Below, in pieces: positions 9,296 through 64,000 of a DNA stretch of 64,000 bases. Every line of letters starts with the position of its first letter. Position 1 is the first letter of the stretch. Source of the DNA: an uncultured Phycisphaeraceae bacterium (GTDB taxonomy: Bacteria; Planctomycetota; Phycisphaerae; Phycisphaerales; Phycisphaeraceae); NCBI GenBank assembly GCA_964425365.1, contig CAYRND010000001.1, positions 1,708 to 65,707 on the forward strand, read 5' to 3'. Below the pieces are notes generated by a model. It searched no databases. It was not told the DNA's origin and saw nothing but the letters and a program-made list of their open reading frames with translations. Made by a program: the position numbers and the translations under genes.

Positions 9296-10513
9296 TTACA
9301 CCTGTTTCGGGTTTGGTTGTCTGTGGTTCTGAATTAGATTCCGGTAAAGATAATCGAGTCGTTCGCCGAGCAACTGTCCGCTGCAATGTCTGCGAACGAA
9401 ACTCGGGCCATCTGCGAGAGCGTTTACGTGCAGATTCGTATTGTCGAGTGCCTTCGCCAGCGTATTGGCGAGAGGCACTATTTCGGGCGTATCAATGAGC
9501 AGGCCGGTCTGATCGTGTTGTATCAGTTCAGGGATGCCGCCGGTCCGCGTCGCAACGACGGCGACGCCGGTAGCGAGTGCCTCGATAACCACAACGCCGC
9601 AAGGCTCGCCCCAGACGGAAGGTACGGCAACGACTCGCGAACGTTGGTAGAACCCAGGCAGCTCCGAATGCGTTATTGTACCACAGAACCGTACATTTCG
9701 ACCGAGATTCAGATGTTTAACGCAATTCTTGCACTGGTTGATATACGAGCCGTGTTCAGTGCCGCCCGTTTCCGGTCCGATGATATGGAGTTTGATTTCA
9801 GGCCGGTCCTGGGCGAGTATACCAATCGCCTTGATCAGTTCCATGACGCCCTTTTCGGCTGCAATACGTCCGACGAAGAGGATATCGATCTCCTTTCGGC
9901 AATTCCTGTCGGGCTTGAAAAGCTGTAGATCAACGACATTAGGGATAATACTTATCCGTGATGAATCAAATTTGTGGTGGTTTTGGATAGCGTCATGGAT
10001 AAAGCGGCTGATGGCGACGAGGTGATCGGTATGGGTAGCGATGAACCGGTCGACGACTCTGCCGCAGGCTGCCGCTGCCCACCGCAGTCCGAATGCGGGG
10101 TAAGCCATTGCTTCGGCCGCTTTCCAGTTATGCACGTGGTAGACGTTGATCCAGGGGTCACGTCGGAACAACCCTGTCGCCGTCATCAGGAGACAGGGGT
10201 AGCGGTAATGATGATGCACGATATCGGGTTTCAGGTCACTGCATTGTTTTCGGGCGAGACGGCTGAATGTATAGACGTTTTTCAGCATGGCGGTCATGCT
10301 TGTACAGCGGTGGCTTTCACCTGTCAGTTGATGATAGGTAGCGTTTTCGTGATTGCGAGTTCGCGTGGTATTGTCAGGTGCGACGGTCATGACATGTATG
10401 TCGTGTCCGCGTTCGGCCAATGCGCGTATCTGTTCACGGACCTGCGATTCGATACCGCCGGTGGTGTACTCCGGTAGTGAATGCAGGTTGGTTGATACGA
10501 TACAAATTCGCAT
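9296..10513 (-). CDS. Glycosyltransferase, GT4 (GT-B fold)
   Basis: MRICIVSTN..TTGGIESQV, and GEPCGVVVIEALATGVAVVATRTGGIPELIQHDQTGLLI. Confidence 0.85.
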   Translation of the reverse strand: MRICIVSTNLHSLPEYTTGGIESQVREQIRALAERGHDIHVMTVAPDNTTRTRNHENATYHQLTGESHRCTSMTAMLKNVYTFSRLARKQCSDLKPDIVHHHYRYPCLLMTATGLFRRDPWINVYHVHNWKAAEAMAYPAFGLRWAAAACGRVVDRFIATHTDHLVAISRFIHDAIQNHHKFDSSRISIIPNVVDLQLFKPDRNCRKEIDILFVGRIAAEKGVMELIKAIGILAQDRPEIKLHIIGPETGGTEHGSYINQCKNCVKHLNLGRNVRFCGTITHSELPGFYQRSRVVAVPSVWGEPCGVVVIEALATGVAVVATRTGGIPELIQHDQTGLLIDTPEIVPLANTLAKALDNTNLHVNALADGPSFVRRHCSGQLLGERLDYLYRNLIQNHRQPNPKQV

Positions 10514-16892: not shown

Positions 16893-17698
16893 GATATTTG
16901 TAATTGGTCCTGTTGCATTCTTCTGTTGTCGAAGCAGTCTCTATTCATATCCACTCTCCGGCTCAGGATATCGACATTGTTTTCTTCAGTTTCATAGGCA
17001 AGGCAGGCGGTAAAATCCCTGCATCCGCAGTCAATGGTGTGGAACGCCCATTGGCGGCCGGGTTGATCCGGGTCATTCACCGTGAACTGGTACAGGTCGG
17101 GATTCATGGGAAGTTCAAAGGTGTCAAGGTCTCTGATCAGACCGGTACCCGTGGCCTTGAGATAGGCCTCTTTGCGTGTCCAGCCGGTGAAAAACGCGAG
17201 GTTGTGATCTTTCATGGCATGTAGTTCAATTTTCTCCCCGGGTGCGAAATACCGGTTGATAATCACGTCGTTCATAACGTTGGGATTGATATATTCGATA
17301 TCCACGCCCAGTCGGCGTTTGAGTCTGAATCCCATGATCAGCCTGTTCCGCGAGTGCGATACGTTGAATTGGAGTTCATTTCCCGGCAGGATCGGTTTGC
17401 CGAACCCGGTTTCGTCGAATTGGATTACAGCGGGTTTGATACCGGTGTATTCTGCAATAAGCAGCCGAAGCAGTGTACGTCGGAATATAAAGCGGCGTCG
17501 ATCACGATCAAAGCGGAAGCCGTTTGCCCGGGCGCGTTCCATCTCATCCAGCAGGTTCTGCGGGAACGGTTGCCGATCAGACGTTTCGGGCAGTGAGATG
17601 ATCCACAGATGCACCTGGTTTCTCTTGAGCGGGGCAAAGGCAATGCCCGGTGATTGGATGGCCGTATTGGTGATCACGACAACCTCGCTTCGGTACAC
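16889..17698 (-). CDS. 4'-phosphopantetheinyl transferase, Sfp type
   Basis: GKPILPGNELQFNVSHS, LGVDIEY and FFTGWTRKEAYLKATG. Confidence 0.85.
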   Translation of the reverse strand: MYRSEVVVITNTAIQSPGIAFAPLKRNQVHLWIISLPETSDRQPFPQNLLDEMERARANGFRFDRDRRRFIFRRTLLRLLIAEYTGIKPAVIQFDETGFGKPILPGNELQFNVSHSRNRLIMGFRLKRRLGVDIEYINPNVMNDVIINRYFAPGEKIELHAMKDHNLAFFTGWTRKEAYLKATGTGLIRDLDTFELPMNPDLYQFTVNDPDQPGRQWAFHTIDCGCRDFTACLAYETEENNVDILSRRVDMNRDCFDNRRMQQDQLQIS

Positions 17699-50939: not shown

Positions 50940-51780
50940 GGGGGCGGTAAAGTTCAAGGTTGGGGGGAGGATTATTGTGTGTGGGTTGGGGGGTGGGGGA
51001 GTGTATTTACCATGAGATTGGTGAGGGAGATGAAGAAGTGTGATTGTCTTTATTGCTGTAAGTGCTTGTCAGAGTCATAGATGCTCATAGATGCGCGCGT
51101 GAAGTTGCTGTAGGGTCATGTTTTGCAGGTATTTAGGTTGTGCTCCATAGATGCGCGGGTGGGGGAGTGTGAAGCGGCTTGGGGCGTGAAGCGGCTTGGG
51201 GCTTGAGGCTTGGGGCTTGGGGCTTGGGGTGGAGAACCATGGGGCAAGGGAGGGAGTTCAAGGTTGGGGATAGTGGTCGGATTCTGCATCGGGGTCGGGG
51301 TCGGGATCGGGGTCGGGTATCGGTCTTCGGTATTTCGGATTTTTTATTGCACGCTGAGGCGTGGAGGTCGCGGAGGAGAGGTTTGTTATTCGCAGAAGTG
51401 GAGGGATGGGCGCAGATAGTTGATGGTTTTTACCATGAAGGCCGTGACGGACATGAAGGATTCAGATCGGATGGGAGTGGGGGGAATTCATTGCGGATTC
51501 TGTCTTTTGGGTTTCGGATTGGGGGTGGGGACAATGATTAATGAGGTGTTGTAGTGATGTGGTGATGTGGGTGATGTGGGTGATCGAATGGGGTGTGGTG
51601 TGTGTGTGGGGCGTGTGTGTTGGGGGAATAGGTATGCGTCTTTGTCTGGCTTGGGGCGATTTGATATGATTTGCGGCGGAAGTGCGGTTGGGATTTACAT
51701 TTAGAATGATTCTAAAGTACGGGCGTTGTGTGTTGGGCGATATCAGCCGGGTTGGGAGTGTTTTTATCATTAATGGCTGA
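50940..51780. repeat. G/T-rich, C-depleted non-coding region built from short tandem repeats
   Basis: On the plus strand: a 17-mer GTGAAGCGGCTTGGGGC twice (51169-51202); TTGGGGC/TTGAGGC five times (51196-51230); GGGGTC-type hexamers (51291-51338); GTGATGTGG about three times (51553-51585); a GT/GGT tract (51590-51626); CATAGATGC three times (51077-51155); duplicated AGTTCAAGGTTGGGG (50951, 51256); and duplicated TTTACCATGA(G/A).. elements (51006, 51430). Several 60-nt lines contain only 2-6 C. Confidence 0.85.
51352..51376 (+). repeat. (CGCGGAGN)x3-type octamer repeat, copy D (degenerate)
   Basis: gCA CGCTGAGG CGTGGAGG t CGCGGAGG agagg. Confidence 0.6.
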
Positions 51781-51908: not shown

Positions 51909-54764
51909 ATGAATACGGTTTATCACAGTCAATATTGGGCAAATGCGCTTACTTTGAGAGGGTCGGGTGGAGATATCGATTCACTCACAAAATCGATTGC
52001 CAATGCCCGTGTCGACCTGAATCCGCATCAGATCGATGCCGCGCTATTTGCATTACGTTCGCCGTTTACGAACGGTGCTGTTCTGGCTGACGAGGTGGGC
52101 TTGGGCAAGACGGTGGAAGCGGGGATTGTGCTGTCGCAGCGATGGGCGGAACGTCGTCGTCGGATATTGATTATCGTGCCTGCGATGCTTCGCAATCAGT
52201 GGCAGCAGGAGTTGATTGAGAAATTCTTTATTGCCTCGGAAGTGCTGGATTCGAAGGGTTACAAACGCTTCAGCAAGGATGGCCTGGCCAACCCATTCGA
52301 TCAGAAAGACAAGGCGATCATCTGTTCATATAATTTCGCTGTATCGAGAACCGCTGAATTGTCACAAATTCCATGGGATCTGGTGGTTATTGACGAAGCC
52401 CACCGTCTGCGAAACGTCTATCGCTCTCGAACACGCATACAGAACAACCCTGACGCCAGAAAAACAATGGCCCACCGCATAACCGATTCGTTGGGCAATG
52501 CTTCGAAGCTTCTGTTAACCGCCACACCACTCCAGAATTCTTTACTTGAATTGTTCAGTCTGGTAAGCGTCATCGACCCGCATGTGTTCGGTGATGTTGC
52601 ATCGTTTCGCGAGCAGTTCATCAATAATCCTGACGAAGTCACTCGGAATCTGTCACTTAAGCAACGGATTACCCCGGTCTGCACACGTACCTTGCGAAAG
52701 CAGGTCATCGAGTATATTCCATTCACCAATCGCATCCCGATCACGCAGGAATTTCTGCCTACTGATGAGGAGCAGGCATTATATGATGAGATTACCTCTT
52801 ACCTGCAGCGGGAGGTGCTTTATGCTCTTCCGGCGAGCCAGCGTCGGCTTATCACAATGGTGCTCCGTAAGCTGCTGGCATCGTCCACATTCGCGATTGC
52901 CCGAACGCTTCGGCGTCTTGCTGACCGTCTGGAGAATCTGGGTGAAGCCCTGGACCTTTTCGATGACGAAGATATCGAGGGCATTGATGAGATCGCAGAT
53001 GAGTATGAAGAAGATACCGATTCCGATCCTGATAGCGGTCGGATTGTTCCTGAGAAGTTAAAAAGTGAACTGTCCGACCTTCGCCGGTATGCGGAACTCG
53101 CCGCCGACATCAGTCATAACGCAAAAGGCGACAAGCTTCTCCCGGCACTTCAGATAGCTTTCGCCAGAGCTGAGGAGATTGGCTCGGCACGCAAGGCCGT
53201 TATATTCACCGAGTCACGCGAAACGCAGATGTACCTTTACAAATTGTTGAATGCCAATGGATACGAGGGTCAGGCGGTTACGATTAACGGTACGAACAAA
53301 CAGCCGCATCATGCCGCCATTTACGAGCAGTGGCTTGTTAAGCATAAGGGAACGGACCGGGTCACGGGCTCTCGCGCGATCGACATGAAAGCGGCCATTG
53401 TCGAGTATTTCCGCGACGAGGCAACCATTCTTATCGCCACCGAGGCTGCCGCCGAGGGCGTCAACCTCCAGTTCTGCTCACTGGTGGTGAATTTTGATCT
53501 TCCATGGAACCCACAGCGTATTGAGCAGCGTATCGGCCGGTGCCACCGGTACGGCCAGAAGCATGATGTGGTTGTCGTCAACTTTCTGAATCTTCGTAAT
53601 GAGGCGGACAAACGTGTCTATGAACTTCTGAGTGAGAAATTCAAGCTTTTCGATGGCGTATTCGGCGCTTCCGACGAAGTTCTGGGTGCTCTCGAATCGG
53701 GGGTGGACATTGAGCGGCGTATCGCCGAGGTTTACCAGACCTGCCGCACCAGTGAAGAAATCAAAACGGCATTTGATGCATTACAGGCGGAGCTTGACGC
53801 GAAAATTCAAGCACGTCTTGCCGCAACTCGCCGGGCTTTGCTGGAGCATTTCGACGAGGATGTCCGCTATCGTCTGAAAATCAACCGGGAAAAAACGATT
53901 GAATTTCTATCGCAGCGGGAACGCTGGTTACTCGAATTGACACGGGTTGAACTTAACGGTGATGCCCGTTTTGATGATCAAAGGCCCAGATTCCATTATT
54001 CCGGCCCTGACGCCGGACAAGGCTGGTACAATCTGGCCTGGAAAGAGGCGGAAGCTACCGACGAGCATTTCTACCGTCCCGATCATCCGCTGGCCCTACA
54101 TCTGATCAATCAGGCCAAGGCCCGGCAGTTACCCGCAGCCGAGGTTGTATTCGACTACACGAATCACCCGTCGAAGATCAGCATTTTCGAGCCATTGGTC
54201 GGCCAGTCCGGCTGGCTGGAAGTTTCCAAACTTACGGTATCGGCCGTGGAGGTGGACGAGTTTCTTGTTTTCGCTTGTAGAACTGACCATAACCAGCGAT
54301 TGGACGAGGACATCTGCCGGAAGCTCTTGTCGCTTTCCGCCGCAGTCGAATCGGAGGCTACTGACGCACCCAGTCTGGCCGTGATCCGCGATGCCGAAGT
54401 GAACGCCCGTCTCAAGGAGATCGACACCCGCAACGCCCGCTTCTTCGATGAGGAAGTCCTGAAGCTCGACTGTTGGAGCGAGGACCTGAAAATATCTCTG
54501 GAGCATGAGATCAAGGAGCTTGACAGGCAGATCCGCGAGCTTCGCCGCACGGCTGCTCTTGCTCAATCCCTCCAGGACAAGCTGACCCACCAGAAACAAC
54601 TGCGCGATCTCGAACGCCGCCGCAACGTGAAGCGGCGCGAACTCTTCGACGCCCAGGACGCCATTGACACGCAGCGGGAAGAACTGATCGGTAAGATTGA
54701 GAAACAGTTGAAGCATACCAGCACCGTCCAAGCCCTGTTTACGATACGATGGAGGCTTTTATGA
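51909..54764 (+). CDS. SNF2-family helicase/translocase with a long coiled-coil C-terminal region
   Basis: Motif I LADEVGLGKT; Ia IIVPAMLRNQW; II VVIDEAHRLRN; III LLLTATPLQNSLLELFSL; V ILIATEAAAEGVNLQ; VI WNPQRIEQRIGRCHRYGQ. About 350 aa C-terminal to the helicase core end in a coiled coil, ..ELFDAQDAIDTQREELIGKIEKQLKH... Confidence 0.9.
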   Translation: MNTVYHSQYWANALTLRGSGGDIDSLTKSIANARVDLNPHQIDAALFALRSPFTNGAVLADEVGLGKTVEAGIVLSQRWAERRRRILIIVPAMLRNQWQQELIEKFFIASEVLDSKGYKRFSKDGLANPFDQKDKAIICSYNFAVSRTAELSQIPWDLVVIDEAHRLRNVYRSRTRIQNNPDARKTMAHRITDSLGNASKLLLTATPLQNSLLELFSLVSVIDPHVFGDVASFREQFINNPDEVTRNLSLKQRITPVCTRTLRKQVIEYIPFTNRIPITQEFLPTDEEQALYDEITSYLQREVLYALPASQRRLITMVLRKLLASSTFAIARTLRRLADRLENLGEALDLFDDEDIEGIDEIADEYEEDTDSDPDSGRIVPEKLKSELSDLRRYAELAADISHNAKGDKLLPALQIAFARAEEIGSARKAVIFTESRETQMYLYKLLNANGYEGQAVTINGTNKQPHHAAIYEQWLVKHKGTDRVTGSRAIDMKAAIVEYFRDEATILIATEAAAEGVNLQFCSLVVNFDLPWNPQRIEQRIGRCHRYGQKHDVVVVNFLNLRNEADKRVYELLSEKFKLFDGVFGASDEVLGALESGVDIERRIAEVYQTCRTSEEIKTAFDALQAELDAKIQARLAATRRALLEHFDEDVRYRLKINREKTIEFLSQRERWLLELTRVELNGDARFDDQRPRFHYSGPDAGQGWYNLAWKEAEATDEHFYRPDHPLALHLINQAKARQLPAAEVVFDYTNHPSKISIFEPLVGQSGWLEVSKLTVSAVEVDEFLVFACRTDHNQRLDEDICRKLLSLSAAVESEATDAPSLAVIRDAEVNARLKEIDTRNARFFDEEVLKLDCWSEDLKISLEHEIKELDRQIRELRRTAALAQSLQDKLTHQKQLRDLERRRNVKRRELFDAQDAIDTQREELIGKIEKQLKHTSTVQALFTIRWRLL

Positions 54765-55864
54765 CCGGTAAAATGCCCATACCCAGCCCTTCTCCTGACA
54801 CCAAAGGCTTCGAGCAGATCAAGCTCGTAAACTCGCACGGAGCCGAATACTGGATCGCCCGCGACTTGCAGGTTCTACTGGGCTACAGCCAGTGGCGGCG
54901 GTTCGAGGAGGCCATCTCCCGCGCCATAACCTCCTGCACCCAGTCAGGTAATGACCCCGCCCACCATTTTGCCGGTGCCGGCAAAATGGTCACGCTCGGC
55001 TCTGGCAGCCAGCGGGAAGTGCCCGACTATCACCTTTCCCGCTTCGCCTGCTACCTGATCGCCCAGAACGGCGACCCCCGTAAGCCGGAGATCGCCTTTG
55101 CCCAGAAGTATTTCGCCATCCAGACCCGCCGCCAGGAGTTGACCGACGCCTGCCGCCGCGACCAGGAGCGGCTGGAGCTGCGTCAGCAGACCAAGGAGGA
55201 GTACAAGGCCCTCTCCGGCGCGGCCCAGGATGCCGGCGTCCAGAGCCGGATGTTCGGCATCTTCCACGACGCCGGCTACAAGGGGCTCTACGGCGGGCTG
55301 GGCAACGAGCAGATCAAGTCCCGCAAGGGCATCCCCAAAGACGAAAACCTGATGGACCGCATGGACACCACTGAGCTGGCCGCCAACCAGTTCCGCATGA
55401 CACAGGCCCGAGAGAAGCTCGCACGTCAGCGAATCAAAGGCCAGCATCAGGCCATCGACACGCACAGGCAGGTGGGCAAGGAAGTCCGGGAGGCCATCAA
55501 ACGTATCGGCGGGACGATGCCTGAAAACCTGTCCCCCGGCGAACACATCAAGCAGGTGGAGAAGCGGCTGAAAAATTCTATCCCAAAACTTGAACTCGAA
55601 GGCTCCGACGCCAAAGGATTGACTGGCGATGAGGACAACAAATGGATAACGAAAATCCAACTCAGGCAAAATCGAGATTCAGTGGACTGCAACCAAAGGC
55701 GTAAAAACGATGATTTCAGGAAGAATGTTACGAGCAAACGCAAGCAACCGGCGATTGCCATCTGTTACGACTTTGATGGAACGCTTTCACTTGGGAATAT
55801 GCAGGAACATGAGTTTATATCAGAGAAGAAGTTCACGCGGAGGCGCGGAGACGTGGAGGGGTAG
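54761..55864 (+). CDS. dinD: DNA-damage-inducible protein D (DinD) homologue, reading through into a foreign fragment of about 75 aa
   Basis: FEQIKLVNSHGAEYWIARDL.., ..FACYLIAQNGDPRKPEIAFAQKYFAIQTRRQEL.., ..GYKGLYGG.. and ..TELAANQFRMTQ.. are co-linear with E. coli DinD as I remember it. ATGA overlap with the SNF2 stop. The tail contains KQPAIAICYDFDGTLS (HAD motif I, DxDxT) and then the octamer repeat. Confidence 0.8.
   Translation: MTGKMPIPSPSPDTKGFEQIKLVNSHGAEYWIARDLQVLLGYSQWRRFEEAISRAITSCTQSGNDPAHHFAGAGKMVTLGSGSQREVPDYHLSRFACYLIAQNGDPRKPEIAFAQKYFAIQTRRQELTDACRRDQERLELRQQTKEEYKALSGAAQDAGVQSRMFGIFHDAGYKGLYGGLGNEQIKSRKGIPKDENLMDRMDTTELAANQFRMTQAREKLARQRIKGQHQAIDTHRQVGKEVREAIKRIGGTMPENLSPGEHIKQVEKRLKNSIPKLELEGSDAKGLTGDEDNKWITKIQLRQNRDSVDCNQRRKNDDFRKNVTSKRKQPAIAICYDFDGTLSLGNMQEHEFISEKKFTRRRGDVEG
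55836..55859 (+). repeat. (CGCGGAGN)x3 octamer repeat, copy A
   Basis: tCA CGCGGAGG CGCGGAGA CGTGGAGG gg. It lies at the 3' end of the DinD read-through ORF, right after the HAD-like fragment. Confidence 0.8.
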
Positions 55865-55969
55865 AGGTTATGAATTACCCATAACTGTTTTTGTGAACTC
55901 TGATACTCTGCGTGAGAAAGCGCATATCAAGGGCGATTGTTTTTATTATTTGATTCCAGGGGTATCGGT

Positions 55970-57445
55970 ATGACAGCCAAGTCGCATTCAGAACATCCTT
56001 ATGGCAGGAAAGAGGGTCTGGCACTTGAGTTCAAGCGAGCCACGGATCGTTTGCCCGCCAACTTTTTCGAATCCGTCTGCGCGTTTTTGAACCTTGACGG
56101 CGGAACCATCATATTGGGCGTGGAGGACGACGGCGCCGTCGCCGGCATATCTCCCCAAGCCGTCGAACGAATCAAAGCTGACATCGCCAATCTTTCCAAC
56201 AACCCGCAAAAGCTCGATCCGCCGTATCTTCTATTTCCCCGGGACGAGCAGGTGAACGGCAAGTGGATCATCAAAGTCGCCGTACCGGTCAGTTCTCAGG
56301 TTCACCAGACGGCGGGTGAGGTCTTCCTTCGCAATGAAGACGGCGACTATCGTGTCCGGGGCGTCAATCGTCTTGCCGGATTGCTCAATCGCAAGCTTGG
56401 CATTTTCACCGAGCAAAGGATTTGTCCCCATCTGGAGATGTCGGACCTTGACCCCGGCCTGTTCGAGAAGGCCCGTCGGCTGATGGTTGCCCGTATGCCC
56501 AAGCACCCCTGGGCCAACCTGTCTCCGGCGGAACTGTTGAACGTGGCGGGGTTCGTTCGCAGGGATCAGGACACCGGACGACCCGCTTACACATTGGCTG
56601 CTGGTTTGATGTTCGGGACTGATTCGATCATTCAGGAGCTGGTACCCGGCTACAAGTTCGATGCGTTGCTCCGCCGCCGCGACACTGAACGCTACGACGA
56701 CCGTCTGATAGTCCGGACCAACCTGATCGACGCCTTCGACCTGCTCATGGGTTTTGTCGAGAAGCACCTGAACGACCCGTTCTATCAGGAAGGCACGCAG
56801 AGCCGCAGTCTGCGGGCCATTATTTTCCGCGAACTGGTTGCCAATATCATTGCTCACCGTGAGTACACCAGTGCCGCTCCTGCGACTATGGTTATCTATA
56901 CGGACCGCGTCGAATTCACGAATCCGAACGTACCGCATTACTTCGGCCGCATCGATCCCAACCGTTTCACGCCGTTTCCGAAGAACCCGACGATCTGCAA
57001 GTTCATGTTGCAGATGGGCCAGTATGAAGAGTTGGGATCCGGCGTTCGTCGGGTGAACCAGTACCTGCCTTATTATGCCCCGGGTGCGGGCAAGCCGGTT
57101 TTTGAAGATGATGATATGTTCGCTGTGACGGTGCCGCTTGCAGGGCCGAGTGTTCCCGAAGTTGAGGCACAAGTTGAGGCACAAGTTGAGGCACAAGTTG
57201 AGGCACAAGTTGATTCCCGTATTCTGGCGGCATGCTCTGAGCGTCCGTTATCGTCAGGAGCAATCGCCGCTGCGCTGGGTCATCAAACGTTAAGTGGAAA
57301 CCTTCGCAAGTCTTTCCCGCGTTTGATCGGCGCCGGTTTACTCGAATACACCATCCCCGACAAACCCCGCAGCCGGTTGCAGAAGTATCGGCTGACGGAG
57401 AAAGGCCGTGCGGTGTTGGAGCAGATGGAGGGGGGTGACGGATGA
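55970..57445 (+). CDS. AlbA_2 (Schlafen-like) plus HATPase_c_4 plus C-terminal winged-helix protein (COG2865-type, 'RecG-like' putative regulator)
   Basis: EGLALEFKRA..LPANFFESVCAFLNLDGGTIILGVEDDGAV (AlbA_2); IFRELVANIIAHREY (HATPase-like); and a C-terminal wHTH-like segment. The ATG at 55970 is preferred over the track's TTG at 55937. Confidence 0.8.
   Translation: MTAKSHSEHPYGRKEGLALEFKRATDRLPANFFESVCAFLNLDGGTIILGVEDDGAVAGISPQAVERIKADIANLSNNPQKLDPPYLLFPRDEQVNGKWIIKVAVPVSSQVHQTAGEVFLRNEDGDYRVRGVNRLAGLLNRKLGIFTEQRICPHLEMSDLDPGLFEKARRLMVARMPKHPWANLSPAELLNVAGFVRRDQDTGRPAYTLAAGLMFGTDSIIQELVPGYKFDALLRRRDTERYDDRLIVRTNLIDAFDLLMGFVEKHLNDPFYQEGTQSRSLRAIIFRELVANIIAHREYTSAAPATMVIYTDRVEFTNPNVPHYFGRIDPNRFTPFPKNPTICKFMLQMGQYEELGSGVRRVNQYLPYYAPGAGKPVFEDDDMFAVTVPLAGPSVPEVEAQVEAQVEAQVEAQVDSRILAACSERPLSSGAIAAALGHQTLSGNLRKSFPRLIGAGLLEYTIPDKPRSRLQKYRLTEKGRAVLEQMEGGDG
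57161..57208 (+). repeat. Perfect in-frame 12-bp tandem repeat (GTTGAGGCACAA)x4 encoding (VEAQ)4
   Basis: Read directly from the sequence: gttgaggcacaa four times, followed by a partial gttga. It lies in the linker before the C-terminal wHTH of the AlbA_2 protein. Confidence 0.95.
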
Positions 57446-57489
57446 TCTGTATCACGCGGAGAGATTGGATGGTTGGGAGGGAGCGTTCA

Positions 57490-57513
57490 CGCGGAGGCGC
57501 GGAGACGCGGAGA
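57490..57513 (+). repeat. (CGCGGAGN)x3 octamer repeat, copy B
   Basis: tCA CGCGGAGG CGCGGAGA CGCGGAGA gggggg. It lies immediately upstream of the SNF2 3' remnant. Confidence 0.8.
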
Positions 57514-57569
57514 GGGGGGAGGAATGTTTTGCCGGAATCTTGTTTTTCATGTTTCGCGGTTGGGCGTGA

Positions 57570-57726
57570 GTTTGAATGTTGGCACAATGTGAAGCGGTGT
57601 GAACTGTTTGACGCCCGGGATGCCATTGATCGACAACGAGAAGTCCTGATCAGCAAGATAGAGAAGCAGTTGAAGCATACGACTAACAAGCAGACCCTGT
57701 TTGTGATTCGATGGAAGGTCGCGTGA
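57570..57726 (+). pseudogene. 3'-terminal remnant of a second, diverged SNF2 helicase gene
   Basis: 57589-57726 aligns without gaps to 54627-54764 (138 nt each). The translations are NVKRCELFDARDAIDRQREVLISKIEKQLKHTTNKQTLFVIRWKVA* versus NVKRRELFDAQDAIDTQREELIGKIEKQLKHTSTVQALFTIRWRLL*, with 33 of 46 residues identical by hand. There is no helicase core upstream; the repeat element is there instead. Confidence 0.75.
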
Positions 57727-57740
57727 TAGGAGGATACGCC

Positions 57741-58736
57741 ATGAACGCGAAAGATGTACTATTAGAGATTCGATTCGACGGTAAAGTGGTCGGGCCGGGC
57801 AAAATACCCGTGGCTCACCTGCTGCGATTTCTGTCAAATCTAAATAAGGCACTGCAACGCACCGGGCGGGTTCTCATTGGTGACAGTGATAGTGCCCGAC
57901 AAGGCCGTCCGCCACAAAACATCAAGGCCGAGGTCGCGCTAGACCTTGTTCTGCTTACCGAAGGCAGCCCCGCAGCGGTGCTTGGCTTTGATCGCCGACA
58001 AGAAAACGCATCGCTGCCGCAGATGGACTTTGGCCTTGAAATCCTCGAAAGCTCTATTCTTGGCTTAGACCAAGTTCAGAAAGACAACGGCGGCGAGCAA
58101 CTGCCCAAAGGTTATGACGCAGGCGTTCTGATGGCTTGGCGCGATGCGGGCATGCTGTTCAATCAAGGCGTCGAGCAAATCGAAATCACCTTGAATCATC
58201 GTGCAACGCCACTCAGTGCCATATTCAACCATACCGGCTATGAACGCATTCAACAACGCATCAAGGGACCGCAGACGAATATCCGCACCATCGAAGGCCG
58301 ACTGCTGATGGCTGACTTCAAGGAGCATGGCACGCGATGCCGAGTGCATCCGAGCGTTGGCGAGCCGGTATTGTGCCTTTTCGACGATGAGCAAAAGGAC
58401 GAAGTGCTGGAGGACATTCTTCAGTATGTCCGAATTGTTGGCGAGGCCAAGGAAGACCCGCTTACCGGGAAGATTTCCAGCATCAAGATTCATGACATCG
58501 AACGACTGGAAGACCGTGAAGCCGAGGCGACGGAACTACTGCCGCAGGGGACACCGGTGTCACGGAGTTTCTGGGAGTCGCCGACACTTGATGAGCTGGC
58601 GCTGACCCAAAACGTCAAGCCATTGCAGGACGTGGCAGCACTGTTTGGAACCTGGCCCGGCGAGGATGATGACGGTTTCGAAGCGGCCGTGGATGATCTG
58701 CGACATCGCGCCGGCGATAGGAGGAACCCGCGATGA
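57741..58736 (+). CDS. Unknown 331-aa protein in the antitoxin position of a VapC module
   Basis: A strong SD (AGGAGG, 57729-57734) lies 6 nt before the ATG at 57741. ATGA overlap with vapC. I recognise no domain in the N-terminal 270 aa or so. The acidic C-terminal tail is ..SFWESPTLDELALTQNVKPLQDVAALFGTWPGEDDDGFEAAVDDLRHR... Confidence 0.7.
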   Translation: MNAKDVLLEIRFDGKVVGPGKIPVAHLLRFLSNLNKALQRTGRVLIGDSDSARQGRPPQNIKAEVALDLVLLTEGSPAAVLGFDRRQENASLPQMDFGLEILESSILGLDQVQKDNGGEQLPKGYDAGVLMAWRDAGMLFNQGVEQIEITLNHRATPLSAIFNHTGYERIQQRIKGPQTNIRTIEGRLLMADFKEHGTRCRVHPSVGEPVLCLFDDEQKDEVLEDILQYVRIVGEAKEDPLTGKISSIKIHDIERLEDREAEATELLPQGTPVSRSFWESPTLDELALTQNVKPLQDVAALFGTWPGEDDDGFEAAVDDLRHRAGDRRNPR

Positions 58737-59158
58737 GTGACGTAAAGATCATCCTCGATACCTGCATTGTGTCCTATCTCATGCGTGGTGGAGACCAGGC
58801 AAAGGCCTACCTGCCTCACGTTCAGGGAAAGCTTCTTGCCATAAGCTTCATCACCGTGGGCGAACTGTACTTTGGCGCTGAAAAGGCCCAATGGGGCGAG
58901 CCAAAGCGAAAGCAGCTTGAGACCACGCTCCGCAATTTTGTGGTCATTCCGTATGACCACGAAATCGCCCGCTGCTACGGGCGATTAGTAGCCCAACGGC
59001 AACGCAACGGAATGCCCATCGCCCCCAACGACGCGTGGATTGCCGCCTGCACGGTCCGGCACAGCCTGCCGCTGGTCACACACAACCCAAAGGACTTTGC
59101 AGCAATCCAAGACCTCAGCGTCATTACAGAACATCGGGTTGACAATCCGGGGGAATAG
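58733..59158 (+). CDS. vapC: PIN-domain ribonuclease toxin (VapC family)
   Basis: 141 aa, with the acidic tetrad context ILDTCIV, TVGELYFG, PNDAWIAAC and THNPKDF. Confidence 0.85.
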   Translation: MSDVKIILDTCIVSYLMRGGDQAKAYLPHVQGKLLAISFITVGELYFGAEKAQWGEPKRKQLETTLRNFVVIPYDHEIARCYGRLVAQRQRNGMPIAPNDAWIAACTVRHSLPLVTHNPKDFAAIQDLSVITEHRVDNPGE

Positions 59159-59165
59159 CACCGAC

Positions 59166-60857
59166 ATGGCGAAAAGCAATACACGGTTGGAACTGACCTG
59201 GATCGGCAAGGAGAAGCGGCCGAAGCTGGAGCCGCGCGTCCTGATCGAGGACCCGGATAAGTCGTACCACGCTGCCCATCGAGTCAGCGAGGACGACCTG
59301 TTCGACAACCGGCTGATCTTCGGCGACAACCTCCTGGCCCTCAAGGCGCTGGAGCAGGAGTTCAGTGGCAAGATCAAGTGCATCTACATTGACCCGCCGT
59401 ACAACACGGGGTCAGCGTTCACACATTACGAGGATGGCGTTGAGCATTCACTCTGGCTCTCGCTTATGCGCGACCGCCTCGAAGTCCTCCGCCGCCTTCT
59501 CTGCCCCAAAGGTTCAATATGGATAAGTATTGATGATAACGAAATGCCCTATCTTCGCGTACTGATGGACGAGGTGTTCGGTCGGCAGAACTTCGTCGCG
59601 CAGTGCATCTGGGAGAAGGTGTATTCCCCCAAGAGTACTGCCAAGTTCCTGTCAGTGAACCACGACTACATTGTCTGCTACGCGCGCGACGTGTCCTGTT
59701 GGGAACGCAATCTCCTGCCGCGCAGTGAGAAACAGGATAAGGCGTACAAGAACCCCGATGACGACCCGCGAGGGCCCTGGAAGCCAAGCGACTTGTCAGC
59801 ACGAAACTATTACAGCGTGGGTCGCTATGCCATCAGGTGTCCGTCGGGACGGACAATTGAGGGGCCACCTCAAGGCATGTACTGGCGAGTATCCAAACAG
59901 CGGTTGGAAGAGATGGATCGGGATCACAGAATCTGGTGGGGTAAGAATGGCGACAACGTCCCGGCCATAAAGCGGTTTCTCTCAGAAGTTATCAATGGTA
60001 TCGTGCCTGAGACGATTTGGACTTATCAGGAGGTTGGGCACAACCAGGCTGCCAAGCAGCATCTAAAGGAAGTCCTTCCTGATGTCGAAGAGCTGTTTGT
60101 CACACCGAAGCCAGAGGGGCTAATCGAGCGCATCCTGACAATTGCTTCCGCTCCTGGCGAGTGGGTTCTCGACTCGTTTGCGGGGACTGGAACGACAGGT
60201 ACTGCGGCCCACAAGATGGGTCGTCGATGGATCATGGTGGAGCTTGGCGAACACTGCCACACACACATCATCCCGCGGATGAAAAAGGTGATCGACGGCG
60301 ATGACCAGGGCGGAATCAGCAATGCAGTCAACTGGAAGGGTGGCGGCGGCTTCCGTTACTCCAAGCTCGGTCCGACACTGATAGTCGAGGACGAATGGGG
60401 TAACCCGGTCATCAACCCGGAGTTCAACGCGGCGATGCTGGCCGAGGCGATGTGCAAGCTGGAGGGCTTCACGTTCGATCCGAACGCGGAGGTCTACTGG
60501 CAGCAAGGCCGCAGCAGCGAGACGGACTTCATCTACGTCACCACACAGTTCATGAGCAAGGACATGCTGGCCAAGATCAGCGACGAGGTTGGCCTGAGCC
60601 GCAGCCTGCTGATCTGTTGCAGTGCCTTCCGCTGTGATGTCAGCCAATTCGAGAACCTGACGGTGAAGAAGATACCCAAGGCGGTGCTTAAGAAGTGTGA
60701 GTGGGGCCACGACGATTACTCGCTGGAGATTGCGAATTTGCCGGCTGCGCCGCCGCCCCCGGAAGAAGAGGCGGCGGATGACACCCGGCCGAAGAAGCCC
60801 GCAAGGACGTTCGGCAAGGACAAGGGCCAGATGCTCTTCGACCTGGAGGATGCGTAA
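59166..60857 (+). CDS. mod: Type III R-M DNA methyltransferase (Mod; N6-adenine, beta class)
   Basis: Motif IV IYIDPPYNTGSAF, and motif I LDSFAGTGTTGTAAHKMGRRWIMVE. I prefer the start MAKSNTRLELTWIGKE at 59166. The track start at 59040 would overlap vapC by 119 nt. Confidence 0.85.
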   Translation: MAKSNTRLELTWIGKEKRPKLEPRVLIEDPDKSYHAAHRVSEDDLFDNRLIFGDNLLALKALEQEFSGKIKCIYIDPPYNTGSAFTHYEDGVEHSLWLSLMRDRLEVLRRLLCPKGSIWISIDDNEMPYLRVLMDEVFGRQNFVAQCIWEKVYSPKSTAKFLSVNHDYIVCYARDVSCWERNLLPRSEKQDKAYKNPDDDPRGPWKPSDLSARNYYSVGRYAIRCPSGRTIEGPPQGMYWRVSKQRLEEMDRDHRIWWGKNGDNVPAIKRFLSEVINGIVPETIWTYQEVGHNQAAKQHLKEVLPDVEELFVTPKPEGLIERILTIASAPGEWVLDSFAGTGTTGTAAHKMGRRWIMVELGEHCHTHIIPRMKKVIDGDDQGGISNAVNWKGGGGFRYSKLGPTLIVEDEWGNPVINPEFNAAMLAEAMCKLEGFTFDPNAEVYWQQGRSSETDFIYVTTQFMSKDMLAKISDEVGLSRSLLICCSAFRCDVSQFENLTVKKIPKAVLKKCEWGHDDYSLEIANLPAAPPPPEEEAADDTRPKKPARTFGKDKGQMLFDLEDA

Positions 60858-61889
60858 ATGGCAAAGCAACGAAAGAATGAACCGCATCACCTGGTCCGCA
60901 GCACAGCGGCGGAGTATCTCACGTTCATCACCGCCCGTGGTGAGGGCGGCGTGGAAGCGATCTACGCTGACGAAGACGTGTGGCTGAGCCAGAAAATGAT
61001 GGCCGGCCTGTACGATGTTGAGACCCAAACGATCAACTATCATCTCAAAAAGTTATTTTCTGACAGTGAGTTAGAAGAAAACTCAGTTATTCGAAATTTT
61101 CGAATAACTGCCACTGACGGAAAGTCCTATGACACCGGGCATTACAATCTCTCTGCCATTATTGCCGTGGGGTACAAGGTCAATTCCGAGCGTGCCGTGC
61201 AGTTCCGCAAGTGGGCGACCGCGATCATCCGGGAGTTTACCATCAAGGGCTACACGATGGATGATGAGCGACTCAAGAATGACGGCTCGGTTCTGGGCAA
61301 ACAGTATTTTGAAGAGCAACTGCAGCGGATTCGGGAGATTCGTCTTTCCGAGCGGAAGTTCTACCAGAAGATTACCGACGTCTATGCCACGGCCATCGAC
61401 TATGACGTGACCGCACAGGCGACCAAGCGTTTCTTCGCAATGGTGCAGAACAAGCTGCATTGGGCGATCCATGGACAGACGGCAGCCGAAGTCATTGTGG
61501 ATCGTGCCGATGCCAGGAAGGATCACATGGGATTGACGACCTGGAAGGACGCGCCGAAGGGTAAGATTCAGAAATTCGACGTTGTTGTGGCGAAGAACTA
61601 CCTGACCGAAGACGAAATGGCCCAGCTACAGCGGCTGGTTTCGGCCTATCTGGACATCGCGGAAGACATGGCGAGGCGTCATATCCCAATGACAATGGCA
61701 GATTGGGAATCCCGCCTGAACCGGTTCATCGAGGCGACCGACCGGGAGGTGCTGCAGGATGCGGGGAAGGTCACTGCGGAGATCGCCAGAGCGCACGCGG
61801 AAAGTGAATTTGAGAGATTCCGGATCGTACAGGATCAGTTGTTCGAGAGTGACTTTGACCGTGAGATCAAACGCCTGGAGGGCAAGTAA
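60858..61889 (+). CDS. rhuM: RhuM-family protein embedded between mod and res
   Basis: ..INYHLKKLFSDSELEENSVIRNFRITATDGKSYDTGHYNLSAIIAVGYKVNSERAVQFRKWAT.. and ..KFYQKITDVYATAIDYD.. are characteristic of RhuM as I remember it. It starts on the base after the mod TAA. Confidence 0.8.
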   Translation: MAKQRKNEPHHLVRSTAAEYLTFITARGEGGVEAIYADEDVWLSQKMMAGLYDVETQTINYHLKKLFSDSELEENSVIRNFRITATDGKSYDTGHYNLSAIIAVGYKVNSERAVQFRKWATAIIREFTIKGYTMDDERLKNDGSVLGKQYFEEQLQRIREIRLSERKFYQKITDVYATAIDYDVTAQATKRFFAMVQNKLHWAIHGQTAAEVIVDRADARKDHMGLTTWKDAPKGKIQKFDVVVAKNYLTEDEMAQLQRLVSAYLDIAEDMARRHIPMTMADWESRLNRFIEATDREVLQDAGKVTAEIARAHAESEFERFRIVQDQLFESDFDREIKRLEGK

Positions 61890-61891
61890 TC

Positions 61892-64000
61892 ATGGCGATT
61901 CAACATGTCAATGCCATCAGTAACCGCCTGAGCCTCCGGCCGCCCCAGCGTGATTCGCTGGAGATTCTGGCCCGGGTCTGTGAGATCGTGTCACTGGCCA
62001 AGGACGCCGACCCGGCAGCGGCACTGGAAGCGATTGAAAGCGAGTTTCAAACAGTCGAGGATTTTGAGCGTGAGTTTCCGTCGCTGTGCTTTGCTCTGGC
62101 GACGGGTGTGGGCAAGACAAGGCTGATGGGTGCGTTCATTGCTTACCTGTTTCAGTCCGAGGGCATTCGGAACTTCTTCGTGCTTGCGCCGAATCTGACG
62201 ATTTACAACAAGCTGATCGCGGACTTTACGCCGAACACACCCAAGTATGTATTCAAGGGTATCGGTGAGTTTGCGATCAATCCGCCGGTGGTCATCACGG
62301 GTGAGACATATGAATCAATTTCATCAACACGCGATCATTTATATGGCATGTCCTCTTCAAATGACTGCCACATCAACATCTTCAACATCTCAAAGATCAA
62401 CAGCGAGGTGCGCGGCGGCAATGCTCCGCGCATCAAGCGACTGAGCGAGTACATCGGTCAGAGTTACTTCGATTATCTGGCGGAATTGGACGACCTGGTG
62501 ATGCTGATGGACGAAAGCCATCGTTACCGTGCGACGGCGGGTGTGCGGGCGATCAACGAGCTTAAGCCGATTCTCGGCCTGGAACTGACCGCCACGCCGC
62601 AGATAGAACGTGGCAGTAAGTCGGAGCCATTTAAAAATGTCATCTACAGCTATCCGCTGTCGGCGGCAATGACGGACGGGTTTGTTAAGGAGCCAGCCGT
62701 AGCGACACGGGAGAACTTTGATTACAAAGCCTATTCGCCCGAGGGCCTGGAGAAGATCAAACTCGAAGACGGCGTGCGGATTCATGAGAATACGAAGGTC
62801 GAGCTGGAGGTGTACGGTCGCAATCATGGCAAGGACGTGGTCAAGCCGTTCATGCTGGTTGTGGCGACCGACACTACGCATGCCAATGCCCTCCAGCAGG
62901 TCATCGAAGGCGATACGTTCTTCGATGGCCGGTACAAGGGCAAGGTCATCCAGGTGCACTCGAATATCCGGGGCGAGGAGAAGGATGATGTGGTTCAGCA
63001 GCTATTGACTGTTGAGCATGCGGATAATCCGGTGGAGATCGTCATTCACGTCAATATGCTCAAGGAAGGCTGGGACGTGACGAACCTCTATACCATTGTT
63101 CCGCTACGGGCGGCGAACTCGCGCACGCTCGTGGAGCAGTCCATCGGTCGCGGGTTGCGTTTGCCGTATGGCAAGCGTGTGGGTGTGCCGGCGGTGGACC
63201 GGTTGACTATTGTTTCACATGACAAGTTCCAGGAGATTGTGGACCACGCCAATGATCCGGACTCGATTATCCGTGCGGGCGTGGTAATTGGGCGGGATAT
63301 TCCGGAAGCTGGCCGCAAGGCTGTGGAGGTCAGGAGTGTGTTTGAGGAGGTGATTACTCACGCGGAGGCGCGGAGCGGCGGAGAGGGATTGAATGATAAG
63401 CAGCGGGAGCTTTTTGAGAGGCCGGAGGTGCAGGAGGTCGCCAAGGCAACCTACCAGGTCATCAAGCAGTTCGAACGGCTCAAGGGAAGCGATCAACTCC
63501 AGAACCCCGAGGTCCAGCGGGAAATGGTGCAGAAGGTCCAGGAGAACATTCGGCCTGCCCAGGGCGTGCTTGAAGGCATTGTCGAGGCGGTGAACGTGGC
63601 CGAGGTGGTGCAGAAGACCACGGAGCTGTATCGCGAGCTGTCTATCGACGTGCCGAAGATCGTGGTCGTGCCTAAGGGTGAAGTGACCTGCGGATATGAA
63701 GACTTCGATCTTGACGCACGTAACATCAACCTTCAGCCGGTCGCCCAAGACATCTTGATTCAGCACCTGCACGAGAACCAGCGTTACCGCCTGCAGGATG
63801 GGTCGGGAATCATTCAGGAGAAGCGGCCCGAGGACTACCTCGTTCGCGGGCTGATCGATTTTGATGATGTCAGCTACGACGAGCACGCGGGGCTGCTGTA
63901 CAAGCTGGCGGGCCAGGTCGTGGCGCGGCTACGCGAATACCTGGCCGACGAAGATGACGTCATCAACGTGCTTCAATATCACCAGCAGAGCTTGGTAAAC
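61892..64000 (+). CDS. res: Type III restriction enzyme Res subunit (SF2 helicase-nuclease); the 3' end runs off the window
   Basis: Own translation from the ATG at 61892, open to 64000 (703 codons): MAIQHVNAISNRLSLRPPQRDSLEIL.., motif I FALATGVGKTRLM, motif II VMLMDESHRY, later LKEGWDVTNLYTIVPLR. It is absent from the ORF track because there is no stop in the window. Confidence 0.85.
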   Translation, partial: MAIQHVNAISNRLSLRPPQRDSLEILARVCEIVSLAKDADPAAALEAIESEFQTVEDFEREFPSLCFALATGVGKTRLMGAFIAYLFQSEGIRNFFVLAPNLTIYNKLIADFTPNTPKYVFKGIGEFAINPPVVITGETYESISSTRDHLYGMSSSNDCHINIFNISKINSEVRGGNAPRIKRLSEYIGQSYFDYLAELDDLVMLMDESHRYRATAGVRAINELKPILGLELTATPQIERGSKSEPFKNVIYSYPLSAAMTDGFVKEPAVATRENFDYKAYSPEGLEKIKLEDGVRIHENTKVELEVYGRNHGKDVVKPFMLVVATDTTHANALQQVIEGDTFFDGRYKGKVIQVHSNIRGEEKDDVVQQLLTVEHADNPVEIVIHVNMLKEGWDVTNLYTIVPLRAANSRTLVEQSIGRGLRLPYGKRVGVPAVDRLTIVSHDKFQEIVDHANDPDSIIRAGVVIGRDIPEAGRKAVEVRSVFEEVITHAEARSGGEGLNDKQRELFERPEVQEVAKATYQVIKQFERLKGSDQLQNPEVQREMVQKVQENIRPAQGVLEGIVEAVNVAEVVQKTTELYRELSIDVPKIVVVPKGEVTCGYEDFDLDARNINLQPVAQDILIQHLHENQRYRLQDGSGIIQEKRPEDYLVRGLIDFDDVSYDEHAGLLYKLAGQVVARLREYLADEDDVINVLQYHQQSLVN
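63361..63384 (+). repeat. (CGCGGAGN)x3 octamer repeat, copy C, in frame inside res
   Basis: tCA CGCGGAGG CGCGGAGC GGCGGAGA ggg. Within Res it is translated as ..THAEARSGGEG... Confidence 0.75.

Follow-up and report, generated by a model that had tools for sequence, protein, structure and literature searches.

The window is a stretch of 64,000 nucleotides (nt) of DNA from an uncultured Phycisphaeraceae bacterium (contig C1:1708-65707), taken from a metagenome-assembled genome (MAG) of 3.88 Mb in 272 contigs that is 96% complete. From 51.9 kb to the contig end all the genes lie on the same strand and are tightly packed, and they are the subject of this account. Their order is SNF2, dinD, an N-terminal HAD fragment fused in frame to dinD, AlbA_2/HATPase_c_4, a relic of the SNF2 3′ tail, a gene for a 331-amino-acid (aa) protein, PIN/VapC, Mod, RhuM and Res. 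On its domain matches the locus is a putative three-gene restriction-type defence operon, comprising a DrmD-like SNF2 helicase and the type III Mod and Res, into which the other genes are set as cargo. The features are as follows.

51909..54764, + strand: SNF2_A, intact 951-aa DrmD-like helicase, first core gene (Pfam SNF2-rel_dom and Helicase_C)
54602..54764, + strand: repeat copy A, native 3′ tail of SNF2_A, residues ~899-951 (alignment, repeat search)
54761..55864, + strand: dinD (cargo 1), its stop lost and its frame running into a HAD-type gene (NCBIfam DinD, 377 bits, aa 18-282)
55831..55892, unstranded: repeat D2a, the octamer element (CGCGGAGN three times), beginning exactly where HAD is cut off (repeat search)
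55970..57445, + strand: AlbA_2/HATPase_c_4/Fic-like_C cargo at the joint (Pfam; alternative TTG start at 55937)
57485..57546, unstranded: repeat D2b, second copy of the octamer element, ending ~20 nt ahead of the relic (repeat search)
57566..57726, + strand: repeat copy B, putative relic of a second helicase gene, SNF2_B, of which the last ~53 codons (from R899) remain (alignment, protein match)
57727..57740, + strand: native spacer of 14 nt with GGAGG, from SNF2 stop to 331-aa start (same spacer in L024 and L110)
57741..58736, + strand: 331-aa protein, first gene of cargo 2 (827 homologues; AlphaFold model)
58733..59158, + strand: PIN/VapC-type gene, second gene of cargo 2, with an ATGA overlap with the 331-aa gene (Pfam PIN; NCBIfam VapC families under their cut-offs)
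59166..60857, + strand: type III Mod methyltransferase, second core gene (PADLOC MTase_III PDLC03636, 727 bits, full length; Pfam N6_N4_Mtase, 147 bits)
60858..61889, + strand: RhuM-family gene in the second slot, between Mod and Res (Pfam Virulence_RhuM, 365 bits; PADLOC PDC-S05)
61892..64000, + strand: type III Res, third core gene, running past the window end (PADLOC REase_III PDLC03648, 586 bits)

The repeated helicase tail and its two relatives

A sequence-only reading of this DNA had reported that 138 nt at the end of the SNF2 gene (54627-54764) recur at 57589-57726, and alignment bears this out. The blocks align without gaps with 102 of 138 nt identical (74%), and 33 of the 46 codons are the same in frame, including the stop, as had been counted by hand; the differences number 8, 9 and 19 at codon positions 1, 2 and 3. 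A repeat search widens the pair to 152 nt (54602-54753 and 57564-57715, 74%), and with MAFFT its length comes to ~152-160 nt, within reported outer bounds of 54602-54764 and 57564-57726. The weak upstream extension described earlier (GAACGCCGCCGCAAC and GAATGTTGGCACAAT) is present with 8 of 15 positions matching, and there is a further GCGNGA...GAA ahead of it. No helicase body precedes copy B, again as had been observed, the sliding identity being random (20-30%) upstream of ~57566. At the protein level the match covers SNF2 residues 899-950 with 67% identity (E 3.7e-14, whole assembly searched). A and B are the sole two copies in the assembly (DNA E 3.1e-21; next DNA matches E > 0.2), and the longest exact run common to them is 14 nt. 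The repeat is no common element; it is the C-terminal tail KRRELFDAQDxID..R..LI..IE.QL...LFTIRW found throughout this SNF2 family. All of the ~90 aligned loci have this motif, and copy B is therefore a genuine SNF2 tail.

Copy B lies inside a 94-codon open reading frame (ORF) at 57442-57726, the ATG of which overlaps the AlbA_2 stop as ATGA. The 331-aa gene had been said to follow a Shine-Dalgarno sequence, and indeed it starts 14 nt past the relic stop, behind GGAGG. The same arrangement is found after an intact helicase gene. The best relative of the 331-aa protein (86% identity; Pirellulaceae MAGs, L024-26) stands in the order SNF2 (961 aa)-14 nt-331-PIN-Mod-PDDEXK_3-Res, and window 57592-57800 is colinear with L024 9852-10060 at 79%, an alignment that runs past the stop and the GGAGG spacer into the start of the 331-aa gene. 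In nucleotide identity B is closest to the tail of L024 (78%), followed by those of L110 and L029 (76%), L111 (75%) and A (74%), and it has 36 of 46 codons in common with L024 as against 33 of 46 with A. Tail B tends, as judged from these alignments, to group with the 331-linked tails of other genomes. The intact tails of the clade are mostly 78-84% identical in nucleotides among themselves, and B is the most divergent clade member. Second-position changes number 7-13 for B versus 3-10 (mostly 4-6) between intact tails, and B has R→C and Q→R at residues that are near-invariant across the ~90 aligned loci. Most of the A/B differences are at third positions, so the divergence arose while both copies were coding. 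Copy B therefore looks like the decaying relic of a different helicase allele, SNF2_B.

The left half of the locus has another relative. The dinD gene begins by the ATGA overlap that had been read from the sequence (ATG at 54761, SNF2 TGA at 54762-54764). Its relatives encode 291-297 aa, and the 371-codon ORF of the window is therefore a read-through, in which the HAD part comprises the first ~35 codons (~55742-55830; PDC-S34/HAD N-terminus at aa 328-362). In L195 the order is SNF2 (950 aa)-ATGA-dinD-HAD (278 aa)-KTSC-Mod, with the HAD gene intact and DinD 86% identical to that of the window. Window 51921-55634 is colinear with the SNF2-ATGA-dinD of L195 at 73% nucleotide identity, and the HAD fragment (55755-55824) matches L195 9094-9163 at 79%. 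With the left half colinear with L195 and the right half with L024, the window is of the L195 type on the left and of the L024 type on the right.

The two halves meet around AlbA_2, which is flanked by D2a and D2b; 29 of the first 31 nt of these repeats are identical, with an exact run of 23 nt. Relatives of AlbA_2 (64-76% identity) are found after SNF2 in L029 and L041, in the Mod-Res gap in L190 and elsewhere outside such operons (L188, L192), and from this distribution they appear to be mobile cargo themselves. The core of the octamer element, CACGCGGAGGCGCGGAG (the octamer three times), occurs 11 times in the genome versus none for the reversed control. In the window the element lies at 55834-55858, 57488-57512, 63359-63383 and 51350-51366; one copy is in frame inside the hypervariable linker of Res, and another is within a G/T-rich dispersed repeat (50.94-51.53 kb) that fills many contig ends. 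In foreign loci the core is found inverted, just ahead of Mod in L029 (7813(-)), in L172 (4102(-)) and, in L190 (7102(-))/L191, within the 3′ end of Mod, which there lies upstream of AlbA_2. Candidate roles for the element are those of a recombination hotspot, an operator or protein-binding site, a mini-element or a later coloniser of the junction.

Two further repeats were seen here. AlbA_2 contains at 57159-57218 a perfect 12-nt tandem repeat (AAGTTGAGGCAC three times and a partial fourth) encoding (EAQV)n in a linker. The aligned parts of the relatives lack it, and blastn homology with L029, L041 and L188 ends at ~57140 and resumes at ~57342. The stretch 50940-51530, between rpiB and SNF2, is G/T-rich with a GC skew of up to 0.6 and is a mosaic of dispersed repeats. 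It gives 71 BLAST matches genome-wide, many of them at contig ends, and these repeats are therefore the probable cause of much of the assembly fragmentation.

The cargo slot and its scars in other loci

How variable is the interval between SNF2 and Mod? A scan for the backbone, taking one genome per species, gave 80 loci with this SNF2 family in many phyla. Mod and Res follow SNF2 in nearly all of them, and a ~950-aa SNF2 stands ahead of Mod wherever a Mod-like gene was found in this sample; both genes are present in 70 of 86 scored loci. The distance from SNF2 stop to Mod start ranges from -6 to 6746 nt (70 loci), with 15 slots empty (≤123 nt). The 79 cargo ORFs of the slot are mainly ABC/OLD-type ATPases (GajA/PtuA/AriA/Old-like), with DUF2130, AlbA_2/Fic-like_C, Bro-N (DinD), AIPR, Abi_2, AbiEi, RhuM and others besides. 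Close SNF2 relatives (74-82% aa) carry different cargo, this being 331/PIN in L024, L111 and L116, AlbA_2 and a 281-aa ORF in L029, and three other genes in G038. These are non-core genes on the same strand between core genes, and they vary among relatives, as embedded cargo does. From gene content, then, the SNF2-to-Mod interval appears to be a cargo slot for embedded defence genes, with the Mod-Res gap as a second slot. In the window the RhuM gene is separated from Mod and Res by 0 and 2 nt; the corresponding slot in L024, L030, L039, L091, L190 and L196 holds RhuM, PDDEXK_3, AlbA_2 or nothing.

The two ends of the slot are better conserved than the genes to which they belong. Over the last 300 nt of SNF2 the identity to the four nearest relatives (L024, L111, L116 and L029) is 81-83%, as compared with 73% for the whole gene; the other four show a smaller excess or none. 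For Mod, the first 300 nt are 78-89% identical to those of relatives versus 58-66% for the remainder. The excess conservation in these arms amounts to 8-20 points over the rest of the genes.

Scars similar to that of the window occur in other loci. L196 and L197, two independent ENA assemblies of one locus, have the order SNF2-317 aa-Mod relic (27 aa)-dinD (86%)-109-aa ORF-491 aa-Mod-RhuM-Res. The 109-aa ORF is a chimera, in which Mod residues 1-59 are fused in frame to SNF2 residues 899-951, and its SNF2 breakpoint codon is the same as that of the window. The tail half is 93-94% identical to the resident tail (differences 4/2/5 by codon position, with 5 amino-acid changes in 11 nt). The Mod half is 78-80% identical to the resident Mod (4/7/27); these differences are mostly synonymous, and this half is therefore from another functional allele. 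The chimera is coupled to its upstream neighbour dinD, and an ATGA overlap links it to the 491-aa gene. The operon follows TrbC, VirB3 and a 187-aa VirB4_TrbE_N + HTH_17 ORF (L196:106-669 and L197:402-1609), so that this copy lies within a conjugative-element region. An HTH_17/MerR gene is also found directly upstream of SNF2 in L024.

Mod 5′ relics, found by tblastn with the genes of each locus itself, lie within the slot, ahead of further cargo and an intact Mod, in L065 (52 aa, 75%) and L085 (107 aa, 97%). L110 and L181 have the 331-PIN pair intact, with remains of the two arms around it, the SNF2 3′ end being decayed and the Mod 5′ end truncated. These remains are colinear with L024, and the relic frames are broken, by an in-frame stop in L110 and a frameshift in L181. 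L194 comprises SNF2 tail-Abi_C-dinD (90%)-Mod relic (37 aa), and then unrelated genes. The SNF2 family is carried by 40 of 401 genomes of the phylum, and tail-only relics stand ahead of other genes in G169 (aa 894-950), G196 (aa 909-950) and G204 (aa 841-951, then cargo-Mod-cargo-Res). No full chimera of Mod head and SNF2 tail was found in the 401 genomes, which contain only separate Mod-head and tail relics. When the L196 chimera was compared with 1.84 billion representative proteins, the best matches were short proteins matching both halves. At least 13 diverged clusters of such chimeras are present among the inspected matches, with the Mod part ending at aa ~35-66 and the SNF2 part starting at aa ~860-911; one further library protein is a DUF262 fragment fused to an SNF2 tail. 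The junctions differ, and thus independent events are suggested.

SNF2 5′ fragments were noticed in addition. L070 has a second one 2.6 kb past Res (17138-17389), and L047 has a 5′ relic (aa 45-103, 75%) at 10001-10177, ~0.7 kb upstream of the intact gene. Tandem, or once tandem, copies of the operon are thereby indicated.

Origin of the relic

We think it likely that two cargos were stacked by a recombination, and that copy B is what this event left of a second allele. The window would then be a mosaic of two operon alleles, with SNF2_A-dinD-HAD of the L195 type on the left and the SNF2_B tail-331-PIN-Mod-RhuM-Res of the L024 type on the right. These would have been joined by ectopic (non-homologous or microhomology) recombination, with the right breakpoint ~160 nt ahead of the SNF2_B stop. 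In this way the cargos would be stacked rather than swapped, and the last ~53 codons of SNF2_B left ahead of their original partner genes. A later local event would have cut HAD after ~35 codons and left or brought AlbA_2 between the copies of the octamer element. We infer the order of these events and the enzymology of the joint, and allele B may have been resident, imported or a tandem neighbour.

Had both arms undergone a clean double crossover, the cargo would have been swapped without a scar. Where part of an arm is found copied within the slot, one end of the exchange must have been ectopic. Homology-facilitated illegitimate recombination, in which one homologous anchor is combined with one illegitimate end, would give a partial duplicate of the flank. 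The stacking could have come about by a slot duplication, in which the Mod head of one copy recombined unequally with the SNF2 tail of another, by a deletion fusing two tandem operons, or by homology-anchored illegitimate recombination with incoming DNA. All three routes would give SNF2-cargo 1-relic-cargo 2-Mod, and we hold any single one of them with less confidence than the stacking itself.

The sequence-only reading had offered two accounts, namely that an ancestral SNF2-331-aa-VapC operon was interrupted, or that two diverged SNF2 loci recombined. The supposed ancestral layout does exist, uninterrupted, in L024, L111 and L116. The second account fits best, the left half being colinear with L195, while interruption of the ancestral operon fits less well. 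It had further suggested that the helicase terminus serves as a homology arm for the exchange of cassettes. The conserved arms, the turnover of cargo and the scars at both arms support this indirectly, but the relic itself marks a non-homologous joint and not a clean homologous exchange.

A further caveat to the sequence-only reading is that the 331/PIN pair is a promiscuous cassette itself, most of its homologues lying in other restriction-modification (R-M) contexts or alone. A number of observations weigh against the stacking of two alleles. There is no close relative, all SNF2 genes being ≤74% identical in nucleotides overall; the left crossover is unplaceable and the event undatable. A sliding-window mosaic scan of SNF2_A against eight relatives found no crossover point, the identity being uniformly 60-87% with no near-identical donor. 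No Mod-head relic was found upstream of the relic in the window (57400-57570), where local alignment scores equal those of shuffles, and the L196-type junction is therefore an analogy here, not an observation. The microhomology between Mod codon ~59 and SNF2 codon ~898 is only 4-7 nt in 35 loci, and on that ground long microhomology was rejected as the cause of a junction hotspot. The sharing of codon 899 with L196 could be due to chance, at roughly 1 in 20 given the spread of the junctions in other chimeras. Finally, the contig belongs to a fragmented MAG of 272 contigs.

The relic might instead be home-made, the resident SNF2 tail having been doubled when a cassette inserted (for example by Campbell-type integration of a circle) and having diverged since. 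A single crossover with a circle should indeed leave direct repeats on either side of the inserted DNA, and recent local copies do exist, such as the L196 tail at 93-94% to its resident and the Mod relic of L085 at 97% in amino acids. But B is nearer to L024 than to A, and its stop, its spacer and the genes that follow it are still those of the L024 type; the A/B differences fall mainly at third positions (8/9/19), and a longest exact run of 14 nt is too short for RecA-type exchange as the copies now stand. We regard such an in-situ duplication as very unlikely. Still less probable, to the point of being barely credible, is a chimera of assembly, in which the contig would join reads of two strains with different versions of the locus. 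Fragmented metagenome assembly into 272 contigs and a 23-nt exact D2a/D2b repeat at the joint would be its natural setting. However, A and B at 74% identity cannot collapse in a de Bruijn graph, the presence of both D2 copies with AlbA_2 between them would need two separate mis-joins, and the same kind of mosaic is found in unrelated assemblies, including the two independent ENA assemblies L196 and L197.

A further possibility concerns the retention of the relic and is compatible with the stacking of two alleles as its origin. The relic may be under selection, either as a 94-codon ORF that delivers ribosomes to 331/PIN or as a tail peptide needed by the cargo. The frame is open for its 94 codons and coupled at both ends (ATGA to AlbA_2, 14 nt to the 331 start), the L196 chimera is likewise coupled on both sides, and many diverged chimeras persist as intact short ORFs. 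Moreover, a recent paper reports a DrmD-like SNF2 beside ietAS that is needed for defence by the cargo and whose mutation is toxic (Liu et al. 2026, PMC13069673). Yet the substitutions of the window relic look relaxed (R→C and Q→R at near-invariant residues, with a second-position excess), as do those of the L196 relic against its own tail (4/2/5); the L110 relic has its in-frame stop and the L181 relic its frameshift. The 41 open codons upstream of the relic are unremarkable by chance (~0.14), and a protein library contains open frames only, so that intact chimeras are over-represented. Selection on the relic is in our judgement unlikely. We would be just as hesitant to extend the scheme to a recombinase-free cassette system, in which the SNF2 tail and Mod head would be the working ends, ectopic exchange in the arms would duplicate the slot and stack cargos, and the joint ORFs would be kept for translational coupling or as a helicase tail peptide.

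The 331-aa/PIN pair, the core genes and known systems

The 331-aa protein has 827 homologues, of which the best 120 are 70-86% identical and come from several named phyla, and a PIN gene stands beside it in 77 of 80 metagenome loci. Linkage of these homologues to SNF2, implied by the proposed ancestral operon, is found in the closest relatives as SNF2-13/14 nt-331-PIN-Mod (L024-26, L111, L116). Only these follow SNF2; the others adjoin type I (HsdM/S/R), IIG-like or other type III genes or dinD, or are alone. No Pfam, NCBIfam or PADLOC model matches the protein, and its profile gave nothing under E 0.27 against the sequences of solved structures. In the AlphaFold model (pLDDT 74.7) an OB-fold core occupies ~aa 178-255, and the C-terminal tail, which is conserved, is helical; Foldseek matches the model at E ~1e-3 to the anticodon-binding domains of LysRS and AsnRS (class II aminoacyl-tRNA synthetases) and to SSB, RPA, Teb1 and Stn1. 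The 331-aa protein might therefore be a nucleic-acid-sensing partner restraining the VapC-type RNase. Compared with a VapBC type II toxin-antitoxin, in which a small DNA-binding antitoxin precedes the PIN toxin, the pair has the PIN domain and, upstream of it, a 331-aa partner with an OB fold in its model. As a cassette the pair is widespread, being found in R-M operons of type I, IIG-like and type III, and PADLOC v2 lacks it.

Of the core proteins, SNF2_A scores 683.6 bits against NCBIfam DISARM_DrmD_b (NF038318), under the cut-off of 950 and covering aa 29-675 only. Its PADLOC match is DrmD (PDLC02619), HmaA being secondary at 186 bits versus 683 for DrmD. Res, read from the contig, has a full length of 899 aa, and its relatives carry ResIII + RE_endonuc. 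DUF1998 (PF09369), the mark of the DISARM proteins DrmA/DrmB, gave no match in the genome of the window (96% complete), while a control found it in 8 of 14 genomes. The backbone is therefore a helicase with type III R-M and embedded genes, and not DISARM or Hma. No Hma model is among the listed PADLOC matches of Mod and Res (for Mod, the best 25 of 53). Pfam and NCBIfam scans found no recombinase or integrase domain in the eight genes of the locus. Between 54.4 and 59.3 kb there was no promoter-like site, although the consensus used may not fit this organism, and terminator-like sites were no more frequent than in shuffles. Rfam gave no match in 49.5-64 kb. Adjoining the defence locus, four very large minus-strand ORFs (1864-2227 aa) at 21836-47220 form a cluster of the megasynthase type.

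The locus and its relatives, whose backbone of helicase and type III R-M is widespread but has no name, offer physical evidence on embedding. Stacking of cargos occurs alongside swapping, and the mark that it leaves is either the relic of one arm, SNF2 tail or Mod head, or a chimera of the two in frame. A systematic search for such marks would allow cassette flow to be dated and traced. They also call for caution in annotation, as what looks like a short 'hypothetical protein' in one of these operons may be the remnant of a junction.

Defence hotspots hold variable cargo between conserved core-gene flanks. In this locus it is the defence system itself that supplies the flanks, from the ends of its genes, and not housekeeping or prophage genes. 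The arrangement also differs from integron-like and other site-specific cassette systems, since the eight genes of the locus include no recombinase and the chimera junctions vary. With type III R-M of the EcoP1I/EcoP15I type it shares Mod followed by Res, both with strong matches to PADLOC type III models; unlike those systems it has SNF2 ahead of Mod, and both intergenic positions are apparent cargo slots. Class 1 DISARM (DrmD, DrmMI, DrmA, DrmB, DrmC) has in common with it the DrmD-like N-terminal two-thirds of the SNF2 protein, whereas here the SNF2 score is under cut-off, DUF1998 is lacking from the genome and a PLD gene from the locus, and the partners are a type III Mod and Res. Nor does it correspond to Hma (HmaA helicase, HmaB methylase, HmaC ATPase), HmaA being a secondary match only and Mod and Res fitting type III models. 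In ietHAS (Liu et al., NAR 2026, PMC13069673), to which we liken it by description, the two-gene cargo directly follows a DrmD-like SNF2 ('ietH'); in the present locus dinD/AlbA_2/331-PIN are the cargo and the backbone is Mod/Res, and the ietHAS section of that paper mentions no such backbone. By analogy with that report, a functional link between helicase and cargo is conceivable.

The closest parallel is with the embedded defence genes described by Payne, Hughes, Fineran & Jackson (bioRxiv 10.1101/2024.01.29.577857) in Hma, BREX, DISARM and type I R-M, which likewise are extra same-strand genes of defence type nested between helicase and methylase core genes. Embedded genes now serve the discovery of immune systems, and how embedding arises was left open in that study, the text of which does not contain the word 'recombination'. 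Several of its PADLOC HEC/PDC candidates are among the cargo here (DinD = PDC-S13, RhuM = PDC-S05, HAD = PDC-S34), and ABC ATPases dominate. What differs is the type III + SNF2 backbone, the physical scars, and the 331-aa + PIN cargo pair, which has no PADLOC model match. Embedded defence genes are thus already known; what is new is a recurrent, searchable class of junction in a helicase + type III backbone.

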